DNA from: a virus
IMG/VR virus record: IMGVR_UViG_3300035698_006802
Span: 1 to 64,000 of that record
Strand: one strand, 5' to 3'
Length of the DNA: 64,000 bases
Under the pieces are notes generated by a model. It had not been told where the DNA came from. It saw only the letters and a list, made by a program, of their open reading frames with translations, and made no database searches. Below are positions 1 to 23,043 of the stretch, piece after piece; positions within the stretch are counted from its first letter, which is position 1; every line of letters starts with the position of its first letter. The position numbers and the translations under genes were made by a program.

Positions 1-22
1 CCGCCAAGAGTATGTGTGAAAG

Positions 23-100
23 TGGCGGGATGGACGGGACTTGAACCCGCGACCTTCTGGATGACAACCAGATATCCTAGACCTACTAGACCACCACCCC
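23..100 (-). tRNA. tRNA-Asp(GTC)
   Basis: Cloverleaf on minus strand; anticodon loop TTGTCAT; T-loop GTTCAAG; encoded CCA. Confidence 0.9.
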
Positions 101-105
101 AAAAA

Positions 106-183
106 TGGTCCCCCCGACAGGACTCGAACCTGCGACCCCTCGGTTAAGAGCCGAGTGCTCTGATCCAACTGAGCTACGGAGGG
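106..183 (-). tRNA. tRNA-Lys(CTT)
   Basis: Anticodon arm CTCGG-CTCTTAA-CCGAG; TTCGAGT T-loop; CCA end. Confidence 0.93.
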
Positions 184-258
184 TGGAGCCCCAGGCGGGA
201 GTCGAACCCGCGGCCTCTCCCTTACCGAGGGAGTGCTCTACCGCTGAGCTACAAGGGC
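184..258 (-). tRNA. tRNA-Thr(GGT)
   Basis: Anticodon arm CTCCC-TCGGTAA-GGGAG (C at position 33); CCA end; abuts tRNA-Lys with no spacer. Confidence 0.88.
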
Positions 259-263
259 AAGAT

Positions 264-340
264 TGGAGCGGCTGATGGGCGACGATCCCACTACCTCCGC
301 CTTGGCAAGGCGGTGCTCTACCAACGTGAGCTACAGCCGC
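264..340 (-). tRNA. tRNA-Gly(GCC)
   Basis: Anticodon arm CCGCC-TTGCCAA-GGCGG; atypical T-loop ATCGTCG; CCA end. Confidence 0.88.
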
Positions 341-343
341 AAA

Positions 344-419
344 TGGAGCGGAAAACGAGAATCGAACTCGCAACCCTCGGCTTGGAAGGCCGACGCTCTG
401 CCAATTGAGCTATTTCCGC
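344..419 (-). tRNA. tRNA-Gly(TCC)
   Basis: Anticodon loop CTTCCAA; acceptor stem GCGGAAA/TTTCCGC; CCA end. Confidence 0.93.
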
Positions 420-486
420 TTACTCACTTTCCTTCTAGGAATTCCTTCAGGAGCTGTGCAGACCCTCTGGGAACGAACCCCCTAAG

Positions 487-562
487 TGGAGCGGGCGACC
501 GGACTCGAACCGGCGACAGCTTGCTTGGGAAGCAAGGACTCTACCAACTGAGCTACACCCGC
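487..562 (-). tRNA. tRNA-Gly(CCC)
   Basis: Anticodon loop TTCCCAA; TTCGAGT T-loop; CCA end. Confidence 0.93.
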
Positions 563-745
563 TTAGGTTTCTGGGTCTTCTGGGTCTGAGAAGTCCCAGA
601 GGTCTTCCAGACCCCCCATGTCCTTTATGATTTTGTTGAGGCGATCCGATTCTCGCATGCCTGCTCTACCTTCCCGGGCAATGCGTCTCCGTTCTTTTGG
701 GGTCGTGGATTTGAGCCAGTCCTCGTGTGCTTTGCTATCCTTCAT
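563..745 (-). CDS. hypothetical protein (60 aa)
   Basis: ORF coupled to the upstream ORF; phage-like composition. Confidence 0.55.
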   Translation of the reverse strand: MKDSKAHEDWLKSTTPKERRRIAREGRAGMRESDRLNKIIKDMGGLEDLWDFSDPEDPET

Positions 746-975
746 TAGCCCTGGTCCTCCAGGACCACTCCCCAGGCGGCCTGGAGATTTTCATCCAGGG
801 TGAGGACAGGGTTCATCGGAATGCCGGGAAGTGGCTTTCGAGGGGACACATTGATGAGATCCAACCAGCTGCCTCGCAGCTTGACCTCAACTTGCCCGGT
901 AGCCCGGTTCTTCCTGGCTTTTGCGTTGCCTTCGTTGTCCTTGTCGAAGTATTCGTAGGTCACGATGCCCTCCAT
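745..975 (-). CDS. hypothetical protein
   Basis: Likely start MEGIVTY at 975; stop overlaps next start. Confidence 0.55.
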   Translation of the reverse strand: MEGIVTYEYFDKDNEGNAKARKNRATGQVEVKLRGSWLDLINVSPRKPLPGIPMNPVLTLDENLQAAWGVVLEDQG

Positions 976-1027
976 AACGCCCCTATAGTACCCGTAAAGT
1001 AGTCGCAACCTCCCCACGGGCACTAAA

Positions 1028-1594
1028 ATGACTTTCTCAGAAGCCTTCGAAACAGCGTCCACGGATGAAGAGCGTGCTCTCGTTGTCCAGGATGAGCGGA
1101 GGGAAGTCAATCGGTCGCAGAGCAAAGTGATTGAGCTGGCACCTCAATTGAAGCAGCCCACATGGCGCACCCGGCTCTGGAGGTCTATGATTACGGACAC
1201 AGAGAGCGGTGAGACCGTCCTGTTTGCTCTCAGTGTGTTTTGGTGCATCCTCCTGTTCTCTGACCAGAGTTCGTTTGAAACCTCTCCGGGCCTCTATGGT
1301 GGGATGCAGGCAGCAGCTTCCGAGTGGGTCTGGGCTTCCCTTCTTTCTGTTGGGACCGTCTGTCTAGCTCTCGGGCTTCTCACAGACAGGGCAGATGTTC
1401 GTGGGCACGGTCTGTTGTTCCTTGGTGCTACTTGGGGTGTTGCCGCTATTTCCCAGCTAGACTCTGATGTGTTCTCTGCTACGCCTGCGGTCATGGCAGT
1501 GATGGCACTCTGGTTCTACTTCACCCCCCGTCAGGGGGAATCCCAACAGGCAGGGCGGTGGCTGAACTCCTTGAAATCTTGGCTCCATATCTAA
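1028..1594 (+). CDS. multi-pass membrane protein (holin-like candidate)
   Basis: About 4 hydrophobic helices in the C-terminal two-thirds. Confidence 0.6.
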   Translation: MTFSEAFETASTDEERALVVQDERREVNRSQSKVIELAPQLKQPTWRTRLWRSMITDTESGETVLFALSVFWCILLFSDQSSFETSPGLYGGMQAAASEWVWASLLSVGTVCLALGLLTDRADVRGHGLLFLGATWGVAAISQLDSDVFSATPAVMAVMALWFYFTPRQGESQQAGRWLNSLKSWLHI

Positions 1595-2031
1595 AGGACC
1601 ATCTCACTGCCGCGATTCTGTTTGAACTGCTCGTATTGATCCTGGTTTTCTGGGTCGTGCGGGGAATCGGACAGTACCTGTTGCAGTGGTATCAGGCACG
1701 CACTGCTGCTGGCAGCGGTGTCGAGGAGACTGTCCGCAAGTACTACGACAACCTGTCGGAGCGGAATCAGGAGCTGTCCAGGAAGTACGGAGAGGTGTCG
1801 GAGAAGTTGGAGGCGAGTCTTCAGCTTTGCCATGATCTGCGGGATAAGAAAGGGAATCTCCGAAACAACTTCCGCATCAAGTACAACCAAAGCCTCGGAG
1901 AGATCCGGTATGCTGTGCAGCATCACCGGGAAGGGTGTGACATCGAACCTTGCCTGTTGAGGGAGCACATCTTGGATGTGGTTGAAGGGGTTCGTGACGA
2001 TCTCGATACGCAGGAGGAAGACAAGCCATGA
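1558..2031 (+). CDS. membrane-anchored coiled-coil protein
   Basis: One N-terminal TM segment followed by a coiled-coil-like region. Confidence 0.6.
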   Translation: MAELLEILAPYLKDHLTAAILFELLVLILVFWVVRGIGQYLLQWYQARTAAGSGVEETVRKYYDNLSERNQELSRKYGEVSEKLEASLQLCHDLRDKKGNLRNNFRIKYNQSLGEIRYAVQHHREGCDIEPCLLREHILDVVEGVRDDLDTQEEDKP

Positions 2032-2261
2032 TGTACGGTGCAATTGGCGTCCCCCACTTGCAGCCCTCTGATGGCAAGTGGAGAGGCTTTGCGAAAACAT
2101 GGGCCCTGGCGGGGATGTTCTTCCCGAACAGGGGTCTCCTGGTGAGTTTCGGGATGAGCCGCCTACGCCCGGTGCTGGGCATCTTCCCCTATGGGTTCTA
2201 TGTCGGGACCGCTGGGGGAATCTTCGTGCTCGGGTTCCCTCACAAGGATCTTCTCCCCTGA
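2028..2261 (+). CDS. small hypothetical protein
   Basis: ATGA overlap with the previous gene. Confidence 0.45.
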   Translation: MMYGAIGVPHLQPSDGKWRGFAKTWALAGMFFPNRGLLVSFGMSRLRPVLGIFPYGFYVGTAGGIFVLGFPHKDLLP

Positions 2262-2264
2262 ATG

Positions 2265-2341
2265 TGGGGTGATCGACGGGGCTTGAACCCGCTTTAACCA
2301 GGACCACAACCTGGTGCCTCGACCTCTTCGGCATCGACCAC
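2265..2341 (-). tRNA. tRNA-His(GTG)
   Basis: Anticodon arm CCAGG-TTGTGGT-CCTGG; C73 and CCA; no genomic G at -1. Confidence 0.85.
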
Positions 2342-2352
2342 AGCGTGTTGAC

Positions 2353-2408
2353 GATGGGGCGAGGGGCTCGACCCCCCACCAGAAGGGAGCCCAACTCGCC
2401 GTTTCATC
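2353..2408 (-). pseudogene. possible degenerate tRNA-like hairpin
   Basis: T-arm-like GGGGG-GTCGAGC-CCCTC and GATG/CATC end pairing; no clear D arm or anticodon arm. Confidence 0.25.
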
Positions 2409-2416
2409 AGAAATGA

Positions 2417-2493
2417 TGGCGCCCCCAGCAGGACTCGAACCTGCGGCCCCTTGCTCCGGAGGCAAGTGCTCTAATCCACTGAGCTATGGGGGC
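2417..2493 (-). tRNA. tRNA-Arg(CCG)
   Basis: Anticodon loop CTCCGGA; canonical arms; CCA end. Confidence 0.93.
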
Positions 2494-2498
2494 GGATG

Positions 2499-2558
2499 GG
2501 CCGAGAACACGATACACAGATAGGGTCTGACGCCACTCTGGCGCATCATGTCTCGGCC
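2499..2558 (-). ncRNA. structured RNA element between the two Arg tRNAs
   Basis: GGCCGAGA/TCTCGGCC closing stem, CATGAT/ATCGTG stem and two internal hairpins. Confidence 0.35.
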
Positions 2559-2638
2559 GTTTAAGCCATACATATTCGTGATGTCAAAGAGTTTTCCTGC
2601 CTTTCCTCGGGTGGCCGCCCTTGGGAAGGTGGGAAATA

Positions 2639-2714
2639 TGGCACGCTCGGAGGGGTTCGAACCCACGACCTTCTGGTCCGTAGCCAGACGCTCTGTCCAC
2701 TGAGCTACGAGCGC
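2639..2714 (-). tRNA. tRNA-Arg(ACG)
   Basis: Anticodon loop CTACGGA; TTCGAAC T-loop; CCA end. Confidence 0.93.
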
Positions 2715-2735
2715 GTGTGAGATTTTTCTGTTCCC

Positions 2736-2779
2736 GAAACAGCGAAGCCCCCGGCTCCTTTTGGGGGCCGGGGGCTTCG
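2736..2779 (-). terminator. intrinsic terminator / attenuator hairpin upstream of the tRNA cluster
   Basis: Perfect 13-bp inverted repeat (2743-2755 / 2767-2779) followed on the minus strand by CTGTTTC. Confidence 0.7.
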
Positions 2780-2799
2780 TTCGGGGGTTTCGTTTCCTT

Positions 2800-2937
2800 C
2801 TACCCCTTGTGCCTCCCGACCCTTCCGGTATCCACCGGCTGACCGCCTCCGCGCTTTGCAATCCGCTCATCACAGACCACTGCGCGGGCAATGGCGGGCA
2901 TTGCGGTCGCAGGATTGTAATGATGGATGGCGTACAC
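2800..2937 (-). CDS. putative 45-aa attenuator leader peptide (MYAIHHYNPATAMPAIARAVVCDERIAKRGGGQPVDTGRVGRHKG)
   Basis: GGAG RBS 9 nt before GTG; TAG stop 20 nt before the terminator; below the ORF-track size cutoff. Confidence 0.55.
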   Translation of the reverse strand: MYAIHHYNPATAMPAIARAVVCDERIAKRGGGQPVDTGRVGRHKG

Positions 2938-3160
2938 GGTGTAGATCTCCGGGGGCTCATCTTCCGAGCCGGTGCCATATGATTACCCCCCTCGCGGAGG
3001 GCTGTAAAGCAGTTCGGAAAACTTTTCTGTGAAGTGGGGGTTGAACGGGGGCTTTTAGTGGGGTGTTGTGGAAGGGGTGTGGCGGGCACCCTGCGGTGCG
3101 CGGAGTGCTGGGGCCGGGAGAAGGTCACGGTGTAGGAAGCTCCCTTGGACCCAGGAACGT

Positions 3161-3433
3161 TCTTGCACCCGTTGGGATCGGCAATCCAGGAATAGGTCAA
3201 GGATACCCCTTCGTCACTCCCCGACGTCCCAAGCCCCGATGTCTTTGAGGGCATTGCCCGTGAGCACGGCATCGGGGCCGGGGTCTTCAATGGGGGTCTT
3301 CAAATGGGGGTCTTCAATGGGGGTCCTCAGCCAGTGGCGAACAGCCCTGACACCTTCACGCAGCCCGCTCCAGAACCAGTCTGGGGGTTCACCCTCTTGC
3401 ACCCGTTGGGATCGGCAATCCAGGAACAGGTCA
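3161..3433. repeat. 39-nt direct repeat (3161-3199 / 3395-3433, 1 mismatch) plus short GGGGGTCTTCAAT tandem units at ~3280-3329
   Basis: Direct sequence comparison. Confidence 0.85.
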
Positions 3434-3678
3434 GAGCGCAGGTAGTTCATGAGAGGATCAGGGTAAGGGAAGAAGCCATCCTCCGGCTCCCCTTGCTCCT
3501 TAACCCATGCCTCTTGCCATTCCCCAGCCCTGTCTGTTGCTTCGAAGGCTGCCTTGAGGCTGCCCCAATGCGTGTAGGCATTGAAAGTGTGGGCAAAATT
3601 CCACAACTCCCAATTCTCTGCTGTGTCCGGATCCGGGACCATCTCTAGGGTCAGGTCCTCAGAGGGGATGTGTTCCAT
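3214..3678 (-). CDS. hypothetical protein
   Basis: ORF with RBS-like AGAGG upstream. Confidence 0.6.
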   Translation of the reverse strand: MEHIPSEDLTLEMVPDPDTAENWELWNFAHTFNAYTHWGSLKAAFEATDRAGEWQEAWVKEQGEPEDGFFPYPDPLMNYLRSDLFLDCRSQRVQEGEPPDWFWSGLREGVRAVRHWLRTPIEDPHLKTPIEDPGPDAVLTGNALKDIGAWDVGE

Positions 3679-3688
3679 GGTGCTGCCT

Positions 3689-4099
3689 CTAGCCGGGGTC
3701 TACGTCGGACACCTTGAGGCTGGCGGTGACCTTGCCCTTGCAGGTGATCGTGGTCTGCGCCTTGAGAGCTGCAGCCTGCTTCTCTGCCTTTTTCTGAGCT
3801 GCCTTTGCCAAGCCGGGGTCAAGGGTGTCTGCCATGGCAATGATCTTGTCGAGATCGATGCCCACAGCACCAGCAGCCTGTGACATCTTCTCGTTCTCTG
3901 CCAGGAGAACTGCGATGATGTTCCAGGGCTTGGCCTTGTTCACGGCCTTCTGGTCGTAGTCTGCTCCGATGCGAACGGTGCCCTCAACGTGGCAGTCGAA
4001 GTTCACGTCGTACTCGCCGGGCTCCAATTCCTTCCGAGCGGTCTTGGCAGTTGCGGTCTTGATCGCCTTTGTGATGGCGAGGGTTTCGATGTCGAGCAT
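3689..4099 (-). CDS. hypothetical protein (Ala/Lys-rich)
   Basis: Strong codon bias; AGGAG RBS; preceded by a promoter-motif variant. Confidence 0.75.
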   Translation of the reverse strand: MLDIETLAITKAIKTATAKTARKELEPGEYDVNFDCHVEGTVRIGADYDQKAVNKAKPWNIIAVLLAENEKMSQAAGAVGIDLDKIIAMADTLDPGLAKAAQKKAEKQAAALKAQTTITCKGKVTASLKVSDVDPG

Positions 4100-4122
4100 T
4101 GGAGTCTCCTAGGGTTCATCCC

Positions 4123-4152
4123 CTACTTACGCCTGGGGTTCAAACTTGAGCC
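4123..4152 (-). promoter_or_regulatory. class I promoter motif, variant (GGCTCAA-N13-GCGTAAGTAG)
   Basis: Same TCAA-to-GCGTA spacing as the six near-identical copies. Confidence 0.55.
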
Positions 4153-4164
4153 CCCCTGGGGCAT

Positions 4165-4407
4165 TTACCTGTCTAGGATCTCCCGCAGCCTGTTGACCTC
4201 GTGTTCGGATCGGTGCTCCTCCCAGAAGGCCCAGGCATCGATCCCCAGGTCTTTGGCAACGGATATCACGTGGGCGACTTCCTCAGGGAGGATGGTGTTC
4301 CGGTCACCATCATCAATGATTCCGATGACACAGGAGGGGTCATCCGCCACTGCTTCAAGGAAGCTGTTGAACAGGCCTGTGAGGAGATCCTGTGTGTCTT
4401 TCTTCAT
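4165..4407 (-). CDS. hypothetical protein
   Basis: ORF coupled to upstream gene. Confidence 0.6.
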   Translation of the reverse strand: MKKDTQDLLTGLFNSFLEAVADDPSCVIGIIDDGDRNTILPEEVAHVISVAKDLGIDAWAFWEEHRSEHEVNRLREILDR

Positions 4408-4823
4408 CGCTGCACCTGGTGTGAGAGAGGTATGACTCTGCCGGCTCCAGTGGGTGGGCGGAACATCAGAGATCGTTGGAGGGGGTGGTGTTGAAACCCA
4501 TGCTTTTCATAGAAGGCGTACAACATTGCATTCGTGTACCCGGGGTATGGGAGTGCTTCTAACACCGCCCAAAAACCCTTCTCATCGAAATGTTGGAGAA
4601 TGGGCTCTAACACAGCAGACCCTCCCCCTTCACCCCGGGGTTCAGAAACCACCCTGGAGAATCGAAATGTCTTGTTGAGTGGGATCCGCAAGGGGACCCC
4701 ATATTCCGAAGGGGGGTAGCCACACAGTTCAGCACTTGCTGATGCCCTGCTGAACTGTTGGGACCCCTGGGCATTAGCAGAAATGCAATGCTCTGCACTG
4801 TGTAGCTTCACGTCCCATTTCAT
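4404..4823 (-). CDS. GNAT-family acetyltransferase-like protein
   Basis: Motif A-like RGEGGGSAVL and C-terminal FYEKHGF. Confidence 0.6.
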   Translation of the reverse strand: MKWDVKLHSAEHCISANAQGSQQFSRASASAELCGYPPSEYGVPLRIPLNKTFRFSRVVSEPRGEGGGSAVLEPILQHFDEKGFWAVLEALPYPGYTNAMLYAFYEKHGFQHHPLQRSLMFRPPTGAGRVIPLSHQVQR

Positions 4824-5392
4824 TCTGCCTCGTTCCCGAAGGGGGGTCTCCAGGTCTTCTCAGCCATGAGGGCCTTGACCTGCTCGTAGGAGTATGGGGT
4901 TGCAAAGGGTGTTGCCGTGTCCACCCCCACATCCATCGATCTGGAGCAGGGGTCATCTGGAAGTGCCCCATGGGAGTGCCCGTAGAGCTGCCAGGAGCCA
5001 TAATGCTTGCTGTTCCAGGTTCTCATGGCGTAGTGGCACATGACGATGAGTTGCTGCCCTGCGGGGGCATCTTCGTCAGGGACACGAATCTCCAGGATAT
5101 CAGAGATCGAGGCAAACCGGGTCCGACAGGCAGGCTTGAGTGCTATCTTGTCGTGGTTGCCTCGAATGAAATGGATGGTCCCATTGAGTCTGTCGAGGAT
5201 GGCACGCATCGACTTCGGGTTCCCCCACACGATGTCGCCCAGGTGGTACACGGTGTCTTCGGGCTCCACAACAGCATTCCACGCAGCAACCATGGCCTTG
5301 TTCATCTCGTGAACTTCCGTGAAGGGTCTCTTGGTGTAGGTCATGATGTTCTTGTGGCCACAGTGGTGGTCCGAGGTGAAGAAAATAGCCAT
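4820..5392 (-). CDS. calcineurin-like metallophosphoesterase
   Basis: SDHH, LGD, GNHD, CHY and GHSH motifs. Confidence 0.9.
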   Translation of the reverse strand: MAIFFTSDHHCGHKNIMTYTKRPFTEVHEMNKAMVAAWNAVVEPEDTVYHLGDIVWGNPKSMRAILDRLNGTIHFIRGNHDKIALKPACRTRFASISDILEIRVPDEDAPAGQQLIVMCHYAMRTWNSKHYGSWQLYGHSHGALPDDPCSRSMDVGVDTATPFATPYSYEQVKALMAEKTWRPPFGNEAE

Positions 5393-5802
5393 TAGTACAG
5401 CATCTCACTGGTGAGGCCCGAGGCCTTGTAGGAAATCTGACCTGCCCGGAAAGCGATCCTGGCCGCCTCGGGTCGTCGCACGAAGCGTCCTGTACTCGTG
5501 AGGAATCCCTGGTAACGCCCTTGGAGCACTTCTTCCCCGATGTCATCCTGTTCTTCTTGGGTCAGCCGTTCTGCCCAGGCATTGAGTGTCACATAGCAGT
5601 CGCTGTGTCTCCATCCGGTGAACACGAGTCCGGTCTTGGGGTAGCCCTCTGACATCCGTGGGGTGTGCTGGTGCAACCGGGCGTGGGCACGGGCCGGCTT
5701 TCGGAACATGGCACGAACCCACACACCGAAAATCGGGATTGCCGCGAGACCCTGTGCAATCCAGAGCCATTCCCCGTGGCAGTTGTAGAAAAGATGCTCC
5801 AT
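5392..5802 (-). CDS. phage hypothetical protein
   Basis: C-terminal QGFLTSTGRFVxRxEA...LTSE motif resembling a common phage family; N-terminal hydrophobic stretch. Confidence 0.6.
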   Translation of the reverse strand: MEHLFYNCHGEWLWIAQGLAAIPIFGVWVRAMFRKPARAHARLHQHTPRMSEGYPKTGLVFTGWRHSDCYVTLNAWAERLTQEEQDDIGEEVLQGRYQGFLTSTGRFVRRPEAARIAFRAGQISYKASGLTSEMLY

Positions 5803-5804
5803 GA

Positions 5805-6137
5805 CTATTCCCCCCAAGCGGAACCTTTTGATTCCCGGTGTTTGTCCACACTAAGCCAGCGGCCTTCCTCAACTCGGTATCCCGCCATGACCGTCCGAGT
5901 GTAGACATCACCGGGACGGATCTCCTGGGGAGTTCCCTGGAGGTGAATCTTGCGGGCAACGTGCTTTGTTGCGGTGTGCAGGGTCGTGATGCGGTCACCT
6001 GTTGTGCGGGAATCATCTTCCCCACCTTCGTTTGATGTCTCACACTCGCAATCAGGAATGCCTGTGTCAGACCATCCCCGGAAGCCGCAAGTGTGGCATC
6101 GCACGATCTGGTAGCCATGATCATCTGCCCAAGACAT
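5805..6137 (-). CDS. Cys-rich (Zn-finger-like) hypothetical protein
   Basis: CxxC...CxC; AAGGAG RBS; directly after a class I promoter. Confidence 0.65.
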   Translation of the reverse strand: MSWADDHGYQIVRCHTCGFRGWSDTGIPDCECETSNEGGEDDSRTTGDRITTLHTATKHVARKIHLQGTPQEIRPGDVYTRTVMAGYRVEEGRWLSVDKHRESKGSAWGE

Positions 6138-6153: not shown

Positions 6154-6183
6154 CTACTACGCGGCTGCGGGCAAATTGAAACC
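6154..6183 (-). promoter_or_regulatory. class I promoter motif GGTTTCAA-N11-CCGCGTAGTAG
   Basis: Conserved motif with fixed spacing upstream of a gene start. Confidence 0.8.
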
Positions 6184-20437: not shown

Positions 20438-21550
20438 TTAGATCTCCGGGAGGGTGTCAGTGAGGATGCCAGCCTTGACGAGGTCTGCCCGGGTACCCAT
20501 GGTGGGGATGTTGGGGTTCATCTTGTGTCGTGTCTGGCGTTCGATGCGACGGGCAGCTGTGAGGAGCTTGTTGACCAGCTTGGTGGGGATGCCCTTGAAG
20601 GGGTTGTTCTTGGGGCCCCGCGGTCCATCCATGTGATAGGCCATAATATCCTCGAAACGGGCACGGACACCGGGCTCATCAAAGAGCCATTCCTCCTGGG
20701 TGAACATGGTGGTCGTTCGGCAGCGAGGATCTGCGCTCGCCCCAGACCCTGCCTCAGCATCCAACCACCGGCTCACCCGTTCGATGAGACCCACACTCGT
20801 GTAGGCACCAGTTTCCGTGTCGATGTAGCTGTAGAAGGTCTGCCCGTACTCCTGGGCGTCGAACCCGAAGTAGTTGGCAAGCTCACTCTCATCTGTCATG
20901 GGGTTTGAAGTGCCCCAGAGATCCGCAGTGGGCTTGGTGTTGATGATGTCCTTGGGGACACCGAGGGCAAGTGCGAGCTGATAGACCTCACCCTTGGACA
21001 GCATCGCGAGGGGGTTGGTATCTACCTCACCATCGCCACCCTTCTGGTAGTAGCGGAGCCACCGGTCCTCACATTCATTCCCGGTGCCATGTCGGATGCC
21101 ACCGCCCATCATGCGGTTGAAGCCACGACCCACAGGGGCACGGAGACAGGAGCGGATGGACCCCAGGATGGTGGGGTCAGCCAGAGCCTTCTCATGCAGC
21201 CGAACCCGAATGATTGGGTCCGACTCCCCATAGGCAGCTTCGATGCCTGCAAGCATCGTGTCCACCAGGGACTCGTAGATCTCGGTCAGGTCTACCTCGA
21301 TGAGCTTGACATCGAAGGTCTTGGCTACCTCACGGGCAGCTTCCAGCGATTCCGGGCTGCTGTTGATGCCCTGGTAGGCAGTGGTGACGTTCTCCGCCCC
21401 GAGAGCCTGAACGAGGAGTCCCAGCATGACAGCGGAGTCCACGCCACCCGACAGATCGAGTTCTGCACGTCCAAGCCCTGTCTCGATGTGGTACTTGCGG
21501 ATTGCCTGCACGCGGTTGTGGAGGAGCTTCTTGGGGTCAAGTACGGGCAT
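20438..21550 (-). CDS. nadE: NH3-dependent NAD(+) synthetase
   Basis: LSGGVDS PP-loop, GTGNxxE, YYQKGGDG, KGEVYQLA, PTADL, TDE; no glutaminase domain. Confidence 0.92.
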   Translation of the reverse strand: MPVLDPKKLLHNRVQAIRKYHIETGLGRAELDLSGGVDSAVMLGLLVQALGAENVTTAYQGINSSPESLEAAREVAKTFDVKLIEVDLTEIYESLVDTMLAGIEAAYGESDPIIRVRLHEKALADPTILGSIRSCLRAPVGRGFNRMMGGGIRHGTGNECEDRWLRYYQKGGDGEVDTNPLAMLSKGEVYQLALALGVPKDIINTKPTADLWGTSNPMTDESELANYFGFDAQEYGQTFYSYIDTETGAYTSVGLIERVSRWLDAEAGSGASADPRCRTTTMFTQEEWLFDEPGVRARFEDIMAYHMDGPRGPKNNPFKGIPTKLVNKLLTAARRIERQTRHKMNPNIPTMGTRADLVKAGILTDTLPEI

Positions 21551-23043
21551 CAGTGCATTCCTCGTCGGAGGTTGGAGTAGAGAGTGTCCACGAGGGCTTG
21601 GGTGTCCTCGCTGTAGGCGGGACGTGTCTGCCGCACTACCCACGCCAGAGCTTCGGCGGGGGTAGTGCGGAGACTGAGGGGAAGCTCTGGGAGTCCTGTG
21701 AGGATGACGCCCTGGTCGTGCGGGGCTTTCTCGCCGTCCTGGAGGATGACTCCAGTGGGGCCGTTGTAGGCGGCCTGTCCTAGGAAGGGGCGAAACACTA
21801 CTGGCAAGCCGGGGATGCTCTCTTTTCCTGCACCGGGTTCGTCCCCGAATTTCATGGTCGGGGTATCGCCGGTCTGTGTGACCTTCCAGACGGCGGCAAC
21901 GCGGTCTCGGGTCAAGGGGTCCCCGGGGGCCTTTACGATGTAGCCACCGTAACCATACAGCTGGTCCTCGGGCTTGACGCCCGTGAACTCCCGCAGTTTC
22001 TCGAAGTTGTGGGTCTTGGCCTCGGTGAACCCATCTTCCAGGATGAAGCGGGGATCGATGTCACAACTTTCCGCCATGGAGCAGGCAATGAGGTACTGGC
22101 TTTTGATGTCGCCGGAATCGAACCGCACACTGTCACCACGGTCCGGGTCTTCTGCGATGAGCTTGAACGCCTCGGGAAGTCCCGACCGGATGGTGTCGAA
22201 GGTGTCGAGCAGGAAGCTGCTTGCCTTGGGGACGCGATCTCGCATGGCTCGGAAGGCGGCTTTGTCGCTGCCGTACCGTTGAACGTGCTCGTGACCCATT
22301 GTGCCCACGGGCACCAACCCGAGTTCTTTGGCCAGGGCGACATTGCTGGTTGATCGGAGACCAGCCTCCCTGGCAGCCTGGAGAGCGATGCGGTGCTGTT
22401 CAATGCAGGTGGCAGCACGCATCCCGACCTCGAAGATGCGGGTAGGGTCTCCACCCACTGCATCGATGAGGCGGGTGACCCGATTGAACACATGCTCGTG
22501 GTAGGCCGCGTAGTTGACGGTGATTTCAGGTGCCGGGACACCAATGGCATCCAGAGTCTGCAGCACGATGTCCTTCTGCTCCTGGCAGGTGACGTTGTGG
22601 ATGAGGATGGGCAGCCGCTCGGGCTCCAGCTTGGCGAAGGTGGCGATCTGAATGCGGTAGTGGAGTTGGAGGGCCAGGGGCTCCAACCAGGAGACAAGAG
22701 CAGAGGGGCCGGTCACGGTGAAGACGGGCTCACGGTCGAAGAACCACGACCCCTTGGGGAGAGCATTGACCACCAGCTTGTCCTGCTGGCTCATTGCCGC
22801 CCAGTAGCCACCACCCATCCCGTAGCCACAGGCAGTCAGGTAGTCCTGGGATGATCTGGACTCACGGGAGTCTTCCCACTTGGCGGGCAGCAGGGACCGG
22901 ATCATCTCCTCGACATCGAACGGGAGGTAGTGTGAGCCGCCCCTGCGATGGGAGTAGTAGAAGGTTTCCTCACGGAGCGGCCAGCCTGCCTCAGCCATCG
23001 AGAATTTGTAGGCATCAGTCGAAAGTATGGAATGGGAATCCAT
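21550..23043 (-). CDS. pncB: nicotinate phosphoribosyltransferase
   Basis: TDAYKFSM, EVGMR, GTMGH (phospho-His motif), LLDTFD, VRFDSGD: PncB-type rather than Nampt-type. Confidence 0.85.
   Translation of the reverse strand: MDSHSILSTDAYKFSMAEAGWPLREETFYYSHRRGGSHYLPFDVEEMIRSLLPAKWEDSRESRSSQDYLTACGYGMGGGYWAAMSQQDKLVVNALPKGSWFFDREPVFTVTGPSALVSWLEPLALQLHYRIQIATFAKLEPERLPILIHNVTCQEQKDIVLQTLDAIGVPAPEITVNYAAYHEHVFNRVTRLIDAVGGDPTRIFEVGMRAATCIEQHRIALQAAREAGLRSTSNVALAKELGLVPVGTMGHEHVQRYGSDKAAFRAMRDRVPKASSFLLDTFDTIRSGLPEAFKLIAEDPDRGDSVRFDSGDIKSQYLIACSMAESCDIDPRFILEDGFTEAKTHNFEKLREFTGVKPEDQLYGYGGYIVKAPGDPLTRDRVAAVWKVTQTGDTPTMKFGDEPGAGKESIPGLPVVFRPFLGQAAYNGPTGVILQDGEKAPHDQGVILTGLPELPLSLRTTPAEALAWVVRQTRPAYSEDTQALVDTLYSNLRRGMH

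Follow-up and report, generated by a model that had tools for sequence, protein, structure and literature searches.

Leader-peptide attenuators control amino-acid operons, with trpL, hisL and pheL as familiar cases and the thrL and ilvGMEDA leaders as multivalent ones, and T-box riboswitches, which bind uncharged transfer RNA (tRNA) directly and contain no open reading frame (ORF), regulate synthetase and amino-acid genes. The nearest published control of a tRNA array found in our literature search is that of the Anabaena trn operon, which stays silent until translational stress induces it via the repressor TrcR (PMC8421152, PMC10272220). Current discussion of phage tRNAs sees them as supplementing codon usage and as standing in for host tRNAs that defence nucleases have cut (PMC10264068, PMC11464382). 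Here we follow up a prediction, made from the DNA letters alone, that a ribosome-coupled attenuator precedes a phage tRNA array in the first 64 kb (the window) of the 98.7-kb IMG/VR record IMGVR_UViG_3300035698_006802, where a 45-codon ORF (ORF45) and a terminator-like hairpin lie upstream of the tRNAs on the minus strand. The literature searched yielded no leader-peptide attenuator for tRNA genes, in keeping with the remark in the original prediction that no described attenuator of a phage tRNA array was known to it. An attenuator-like leader is reported to precede the pheU/pheV tRNA genes of E. coli. We propose, at a probability of roughly 0.45, that ORF45 and the hairpin constitute a multivalent, ribosome-read gauge of phage tRNA decoding capacity that gates the array, and that they represent a G+C-rich, long-leader variant of a widespread, unpublished class, of which an unrelated phage family and the Caulobacter phage phiCbK would provide clearer members.

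A check of coordinates placed every predicted element at its expected position on the minus strand, within the 499-nt gap between a 154-aa gene (3678-3214) and the first tRNA-Arg. Reading along that strand, a promoter candidate is followed by a GGAG Shine-Dalgarno (SD) sequence (2950-2947), 9 nt ahead of the GTG start codon at 2937; by ORF45 itself (2937-2800), with its TAG stop at 2802-2800; and, after 20 nt, by the hairpin (2779-2743), which is separated by 28 nt from tRNA-Arg(ACG) (2714-2639). The promoter candidate, TTTACA-N18-AATCAT (2979-3008), is sigma-70-like with 9/12 matches, contains GGGGGTAAT (2990-2982) and is the sole promoter-like match in positions 1-6000. The hairpin, made up of segments C and D, has a stem of 13 G+C base pairs plus two inner pairs and the tail CUGUUUCG; at −33.0 kcal/mol (−39.8 kcal/mol for its plus-strand reading) it exceeds in stability every other 50-nt fold on the minus strand of the 98.7-kb record. 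Downstream, tRNA-Arg(ACG) heads a first block (2265-2714, minus) that also holds Arg-CCG (2417-2493) and His-GTG (2265-2341), and a second block (23-562, minus) of Gly-CCC, Gly-TCC, Gly-GCC, Thr-GGT, Lys-CTT and Asp-GTC extends to the contig end; these nine tRNAs are the only ones in the whole record, all on the minus strand and all at its start. No sigma-70 promoter fits the 28-nt interval between hairpin and tRNA, and, since there is no room for a promoter, tRNA-Arg(ACG) is transcribed only through the hairpin, which is therefore leaky, conditional, or not a terminator.

ORF45 resembles a gene and is probably translated. Its codon usage, at 0.287 bits per codon, is that of real genes (0.30 ± 0.21) rather than random ORFs (−0.11 ± 0.12; P < 0.002), a score reached by 0/1655 random ORFs of gap composition and by 0.14% of those with whole-genome composition, and this gene-like signal is strongest in the first 30 codons. 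Its length is at chance level: when the gap is dinucleotide-shuffled, an ORF of at least 45 codons turns up in 85% of cases, and one with an SD-like motif in 24%. A full HMMER scan of 1.84 billion proteins together with a profile search returned three metagenomic homologues, P0002 (46 aa), P0003 and P0006 (69 aa), encoded on contigs of 512 bp (ENA), 3264 bp (JGI) and 2018 bp (ENA), respectively, which were compared as protein sequences and are 57-67% identical to ORF45, ending at the same residue. The 3 or 4 indels that distinguish them are all in frame, the similarity begins at the SD, and the start position is kept. Because ORF45 has three homologues while the neighbouring 154-aa protein has none among 5.8 billion proteins, ORF45 is a conserved unit. 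The replacements that separate it from its homologues are radical, with a mean BLOSUM62 score of −1.03 versus −0.48 for random single-base changes; an open frame and a fixed stop combined with such replacements would be explained by selection for the act of translation no less well than by selection for the peptide made. Neither Pfam nor PHROG yielded a match for ORF45, P0002 or P0003, P0006 has only a sub-threshold Bbp19 match (E = 0.06) and a low-confidence Atlas model (predicted local distance difference test, pLDDT, 0.47), and no confident fold was obtained for the family. The family profile gave no match in IMG/VR or in species genomes, GenBank phage searches with the locus matched through tRNA only, and no paralogue of ORF45 was found in the genome. 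A frameshifted, longer ancestor of ORF45 was also considered and was not supported.

The end of ORF45 was further predicted to pair with the 5′ arm of the terminator, giving a mutually exclusive antiterminator. The two words concerned were located at 2822-2811 (GGGTCGGGAGGC) and 2775-2765 (GCCCCCGGCCC, segment C). Segment B (GGGUCGGGAGGC, 2811-2822, codons 38-43), which would supply the 5′ strand of the antiterminator, is a near-copy of the terminator 3′ arm GCCGGGGGC. The B:C duplex (GGGUCGGGAGGC with GCCCCCGGCCC) has an energy of −23.4 kcal/mol, which is matched by 2-3% of shuffled upstream sequences and by 1.5% of random genomic segments (P = 0.015-0.03), and folding without the hairpin's 3′ arm, which mimics ongoing transcription, gives the B:C pairing as the minimum free energy (MFE) structure. 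The predicted pairing is upheld on both counts. An exact copy of the terminator 5′ arm word, AGCCCCCGG (2949-2957, minus), overlaps the SD GGAG and might serve as a 'segment 1'; its reverse complement CCGGGGGCT has just two plus-strand occurrences in the 98.7 kb, at 2768 and 2949. This copy pairs with B in the full-length MFE structure and not in another fold, and it overlaps the SD, not the sensing codons.

From these parts a working scheme can be drawn for 3008-2715 (minus) as a leader unit, in which a weak sigma-70-like promoter would drive a translated ORF45 and the stable hairpin, lying in the 5′ leader of tRNA-Arg(ACG), would terminate transcription conditionally. Before the 3′ arm of the hairpin is made, B would pair with the 5′ arm C, and read-through into the tRNAs would be favoured. 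With smooth translation to the TAG, a ribosome holding that codon in its A site would cover most of B, leaving C to pair with D, and transcription would stop. A stall at or before approximately codon 33 would instead leave B free, so that tRNA transcription would rise; this range holds CAT CAT, ACC, CGC, GAT, CGG, AAG, GGA and GGC/GGT, which are codons for 8 of the 9 window tRNAs. We infer three things in this scheme, namely that transcription ends at the hairpin, that it is coupled to translation of the leader, and that a stalled ribosome alters read-through.

The codon content of the leader gives a mixed picture. The original prediction held that the 3′ half of ORF45 contains codons read by each of the nine tRNAs; this stands for the 3′ half (P = 0.003), where 61% of codons are cognate versus 31% genome-wide (P = 0.007), but coverage by the whole ORF reaches only P = 0.07 and the half was chosen after looking. 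The original prediction itself carried the caveat that 45 codons cover many codons by chance. The C-terminal 18 residues consist to 78% of R, H, G, T, K or D, and the best 18-residue window of the ORF holds 14/18 residues from this set (P = 0.003), or 12/18 at the codon level (P = 0.02); P for this window allows for the choice of the best one, and windows as good occur in 8/686 small ORFs of the genome. Across the entire ORF, 20/45 residues (44%) belong to the amino-acid set of the array compared with 35% in the proteome (P = 0.13), and a hand count found 6/45 codons cognate to the three directly downstream tRNAs (Arg, Arg and His).

A number of observations weigh against an attenuator. The terminator hairpin is kept in every full-length MFE structure and is far more stable (−33) than the antiterminator. 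The start codon is buried in a stable 96-nt hairpin over codons 1-30 (2845-2940, minus; −42.1 kcal/mol, z = −3.73, MFE frequency 0.69), whose basal stem includes the GUG, and the SD is partly buried by a further helix. The U-tract is weak, with 4 U in the first 8 nt of the tail CUGUUUCGGGAA (2731-2742, minus), as the original prediction had itself cautioned, and part of the CUGUUUCG tail pairs in a small downstream hairpin. The plus-strand reading of the hairpin is the most stable fold of the record overall, and it could equally stop a plus-strand gene cassette (1028-2261) that converges on it. With respect to the codons, those cognate to the array are scattered, with no tandem or dense run; two Arg codons in segment B are AGG, which no window tRNA reads; a ribosome stalled in codons 34-45 would mask the antiterminator; and the tail statistics are post hoc and not independent of the G-richness that makes segment B, with the whole-ORF coverage (P = 0.07) short of significance. 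The first 27 codons of ORF45 bear no relation to the tRNA set, yet residues 12-27 are conserved, and Asp23, His43 and Lys44 are changed in homologues. Finally, no separate leader or terminator serves the second tRNA block, and the TTGACA at 2587-2582 may supply the downstream tRNAs with internal promoters. The likeness to classical attenuators that had been claimed holds for the SD, the short ORF and the antiterminator, and gives a mixed answer for the sensing codons, enriched in the tail but with no tandem run, and for the terminator, an outstanding hairpin with a weak U-tract. The wider interpretation fares similarly: it gains from a gene-like and conserved ORF, an alternative pairing, the position of tRNA-Arg(ACG) behind the hairpin and precedents for the class, and loses to the weak U-tract, scattered codons, buried start and dominant terminator. 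Taken alone, the locus is suggestive, with evidence that is moderate and that includes partly post hoc statistics, and we hold a leader-peptide attenuator ahead of these tRNAs to be a tentative reading, a little short of even odds.

The clearest example of the design in our analysis, and a clearer version of it than the ORF45 locus, comes from an unrelated set of AT-rich large phages. Their leader was met while checking hairpins before tRNA blocks in loci fetched via a nearby phosphoesterase gene, where such hairpins proved common in other large phages. In the first of these loci (L004), a 36-codon ORF, MNLTVTTYQPKQYTQGGKPSVAGLLCLTTNGIDELS, lies just upstream of a 15-tRNA array and is followed, 22 nt on, by a textbook U7 terminator. 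An IMG/VR scan recovered this leader in 9 loci, 6 of them distinct (L004:2290-2603, identical to L030; L031:3040-3268; L032:3058-3278; L033:3001-3265, identical to L034-L037; L038:2992-3257; and L039:965-1175), with leader ORFs of 29-36 codons; matches in two further loci (L040 and L041) were discarded as false, being inside an unrelated 954-aa ORF with no tRNAs nearby. All leaders of the family share an invariant core, YQPKQYTQG(G)KP, which uses exactly the six amino acids of the array and no others, and the 27 nt that encode T-YQPKQYTQ do not vary, third codon positions included. In every locus the terminator is followed by a Pro-Gln-Tyr-Thr-Gly-Lys array, L031 showing no Gly tRNA within the fetched stretch. 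Within 16 residues, 14-16 belong to this set, and 0/7463 background windows reach 15/16. The terminator stems carry compensatory changes at positions 7-8 (AT/CG, TA/CG, AT/TA and AT/AT in anchored pair lists), and the 3′ part of the ORF can pair with the spacer and the terminator 5′ arm at −18.6 to −27.6, compared to approximately −10 to −13 for shuffles (P ≤ 0.01 in 6/6). One caveat on the L004 case is a conserved GTTCTTTGACAT motif between the terminator and the first tRNA, which could be a second promoter.

A similar layout occurs in phiCbK (GenBank JX100813, 49540-49791, corresponding to L043:2541-2792), where gp083, an annotated rho-independent terminator, 22 nt and a tRNA-Pro/Lys/Leu/Ser block follow one another. 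The gp083 product is annotated as a hypothetical protein of 45 aa, of which 23/45 residues (51%) are S, L, P or K. Two further annotated terminators precede other tRNA blocks of the same phage, at L043:1121-1167 (11 nt before the tRNA) and L043:4466-4503 (128 nt before). A crude test of alternative pairing in phiCbK was not significant (P = 0.09). As judged from sequence, the L004 family and the phiCbK layout appear to be precedents for the mechanism class elsewhere.

The same locus can be read in other ways. ORF45 may be an ordinary small, fast-evolving protein gene, with the hairpin as a leaky terminator or 3′-end stabiliser, perhaps a two-way insulator versus the plus-strand cassette; the tRNAs would then be constitutive, made from read-through transcripts and released by RNase P, and the pairing and codon enrichment would be by-products of a G-rich, Gly/Arg-rich tail. 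Gene-like codon usage and full-length homologues sit comfortably with such a gene, and a hairpin 20 nt past the stop is how genes usually end. Elsewhere in this genome, gene-end hairpins have U tails no better than that of 2743-2779, canonical terminators are not enriched, and a simple terminator scan did not call this hairpin on the minus strand. Elsewhere in the array small ORFs run straight into tRNAs: the stop codon of a 60-aa ORF (563-745, minus) directly adjoins the first base of tRNA-Gly(CCC), so that this mRNA and the second tRNA block are co-transcribed, then separated by RNase P. The greater stability of the hairpin on the plus strand, towards which three plus-strand genes converge, and the frequency of hairpins before tRNA blocks in other large phages agree with the same explanation. 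It accounts less well for the replacements in the homologues, which are not conservative, or for the poor model of P0006 and the lack of any family match; B:C pairing and tail composition each exceed chance; and in other phages with the same layout the leader composition tracks the array. We regard an ordinary gene of this kind as rather unlikely, while giving it real weight.

Two further explanations dispense with translation or with regulation altogether. The T4 tRNA cluster contains stable small RNAs, and a structured non-coding RNA resembling them, composed of the 96-nt hairpin and the terminal hairpin and freed when RNase P cuts at the 5′ end of the tRNA, would make the ORF incidental. 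The 96-nt fold is well defined and strand-specific (z = −3.73 on the minus strand versus −0.38 on the complementary strand), the whole 286-nt leader fold has z = −3.74, and radical replacements fit a nucleotide-level constraint. Set against this, the at least 3 or 4 indels among the four sequences are all in frame, codons are used as in genes, and conservation is lowest in the 5′ arm of the long hairpin (codons 1-11), whereas both arms would be expected to persist in a conserved helix. Nor did Rfam offer a family beyond the terminal hairpin: only tRNAs reach the gathering score, and the sbcD (24.6 bits versus 40) and Actino-pnp matches, both set aside, cover that hairpin only. A non-coding RNA is improbable in our estimation. 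Less probable still is that 3213-2715 is recombination debris, with ORF45 a gene remnant and the hairpin serving mainly to terminate the plus-strand cassette, with no regulation. A 39-nt piece of the upstream gene is indeed duplicated within the gap and followed by residual coding signal in another frame, and the cassette has split the tRNA array; yet three other contigs preserve ORF45 as one unit, with the same SD, start and stop, while its neighbour is an orphan, and the plus-strand tail of the hairpin has only 2 U in its first 8 nt. We return to the attenuator reading below, after describing the surroundings of the locus.

The duplicated piece is an internal part of the 154-aa gene (3395-3433), copied with 97% identity as a direct repeat just past its stop (3161-3199), at an offset of 234 nt (78 codons); the other-frame coding signal follows at approximately 3210-3120, and the region looks like a replaced or duplicated gene end. 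Within the 154-aa gene itself, at approximately 3283-3330, lies a tandem 15-18-nt repeat of the CCCCCATTGAAGA type, encoding PIEDPHLKTPIEDP. IMG/VR searches with the upstream 154-aa and 136-aa proteins gave no match. The exact hairpin sequence likewise has no match in IMG/VR. The second most stable hairpin of the record (21626-21675; −36.7 on the plus strand and −32.4 on the minus strand) lacks a U tail and sits at the junction of ORFs 20438-21643 and 21550-23043, in a minus-strand block that had been labelled an NAD-salvage operon on first reading of the DNA.

As regards promoters, the candidate ahead of ORF45 does not fit the class I motif of the phage, and GGGGGTAAT was rejected as a repeated phage signal (8 matches at ≤1 mismatch versus 10.3 expected). 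Class I, a phage-specific promoter-like motif of the form GTTTCAA-N13-CCGCGTAG(TAG), has seven minus-strand copies (window positions 6182, 6829, 10691, 13721, 29208 and 37538, and record position 97429) and a variant near 4123; none precedes the tRNA leader. Neither a class I nor a class II phage promoter was found before the leader or between hairpin and tRNA. Scanning for the class I motif returned nothing in IMG/VR and two chance bacterial matches in metagenomes. An 11-mer, TCTTTGACATC, lies at 2580-2590 (minus) between tRNA-Arg(ACG) and tRNA-Arg(CCG), and the identical 11-mer is conserved in the unrelated L004 family between the terminator and first tRNA (L030:2582-2592 and relatives); this may be coincidental, or the 11-mer may be a −35-type promoter element.

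The record as a whole has a G+C content of ~58% and encodes RNR, RecA, a RecD2-type helicase, a clamp loader and CobT/AAA5-like proteins. As CheckV estimates a completeness of 19% at 98.7 kb, it derives from a very large phage. The plus-strand cassette (1028-2261) comprises three overlapping genes of 188, 157 and 77 aa, with coding scores of 0.13, 0.35 and 0.21, whose products appear membrane-like by eye; a search with the 157-aa protein returned only itself. It sits in mid-array, splitting the minus-strand tRNAs, and converges on tRNA-His, the first tRNA block and the hairpin, such that any transcript reading through from it would be antisense to three tRNAs as far as the big hairpin. Two small minus-strand ORFs separate the cassette from the second tRNA block. 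A PHROG 547 metallophosphoesterase gene (4820-5392, minus) shares the orientation of the tRNA array, and the same family lies within 10 kb of a tRNA array, in the same orientation, in 6/24 unrelated large-phage loci (L004, L005, L010, L015, L020 and L023). Such proximity may reflect a link with tRNA processing or repair.

If the attenuator reading is true, the phage has a direct readout of decoding speed and produces tRNAs as they are needed, and attenuation of the trp/his type is extended to tRNA genes. Several described systems bear comparison. Like the proposed switch, T-boxes couple a terminator/antiterminator decision to tRNA status, but the proposed switch is ORF-based, and Rfam reports no T-box at the locus. 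The Anabaena trn operon likewise turns on an accessory tRNA array when translation is impaired, although it does so through a ribbon-helix-helix repressor at the promoter, with no leader peptide or terminator, and on a bacterial megaplasmid rather than in a phage. The trp/his-type attenuators share with the ORF45 locus a short ORF, probably translated in the latter, ahead of a hairpin that is terminator-like in the latter, an alternative pairing that uses the terminator 5′ arm, a stop codon placed so that the terminating ribosome covers the antiterminator strand, and a similar distance from stop to hairpin. The ORF45 locus differs from them in that the regulated genes are tRNAs and not biosynthetic enzymes; it lacks a tandem single-codon run and a clear 1:2 pause hairpin, has a weak U-tract, carries the antiterminator strand inside the ORF, and encodes a longer (45 aa), partly conserved peptide.

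The phage leaders identified here precede tRNA arrays, as ORF45 does, and they offer cleaner systems that are clonable or already cultured. The L004 leaders share with the ORF45 locus the succession of a promoter (a candidate in the ORF45 case), a mini-ORF that carries a near-copy of the 3′ arm of the hairpin downstream, that hairpin (terminator-like in the ORF45 case) and the tRNA array, as well as, where the post hoc tail of ORF45 is counted, an ORF rich in the amino acids of the array; they differ in being shorter, in their 12-16-residue pure run of array amino acids, in their U7 terminators and in an antiterminator more stable than the terminator, and have no sequence similarity to it. In phiCbK, another G+C-rich phage, a 45-codon ORF enriched in the amino acids of its tRNA block precedes an annotated terminator, where ORF45 precedes a terminator-like hairpin, and a short gap (~22 nt) leads to the first tRNA of the block; this leader has no sequence similarity to that of ORF45 and, unlike it, ends in a proper U-tract (UUUUCUUUUU).

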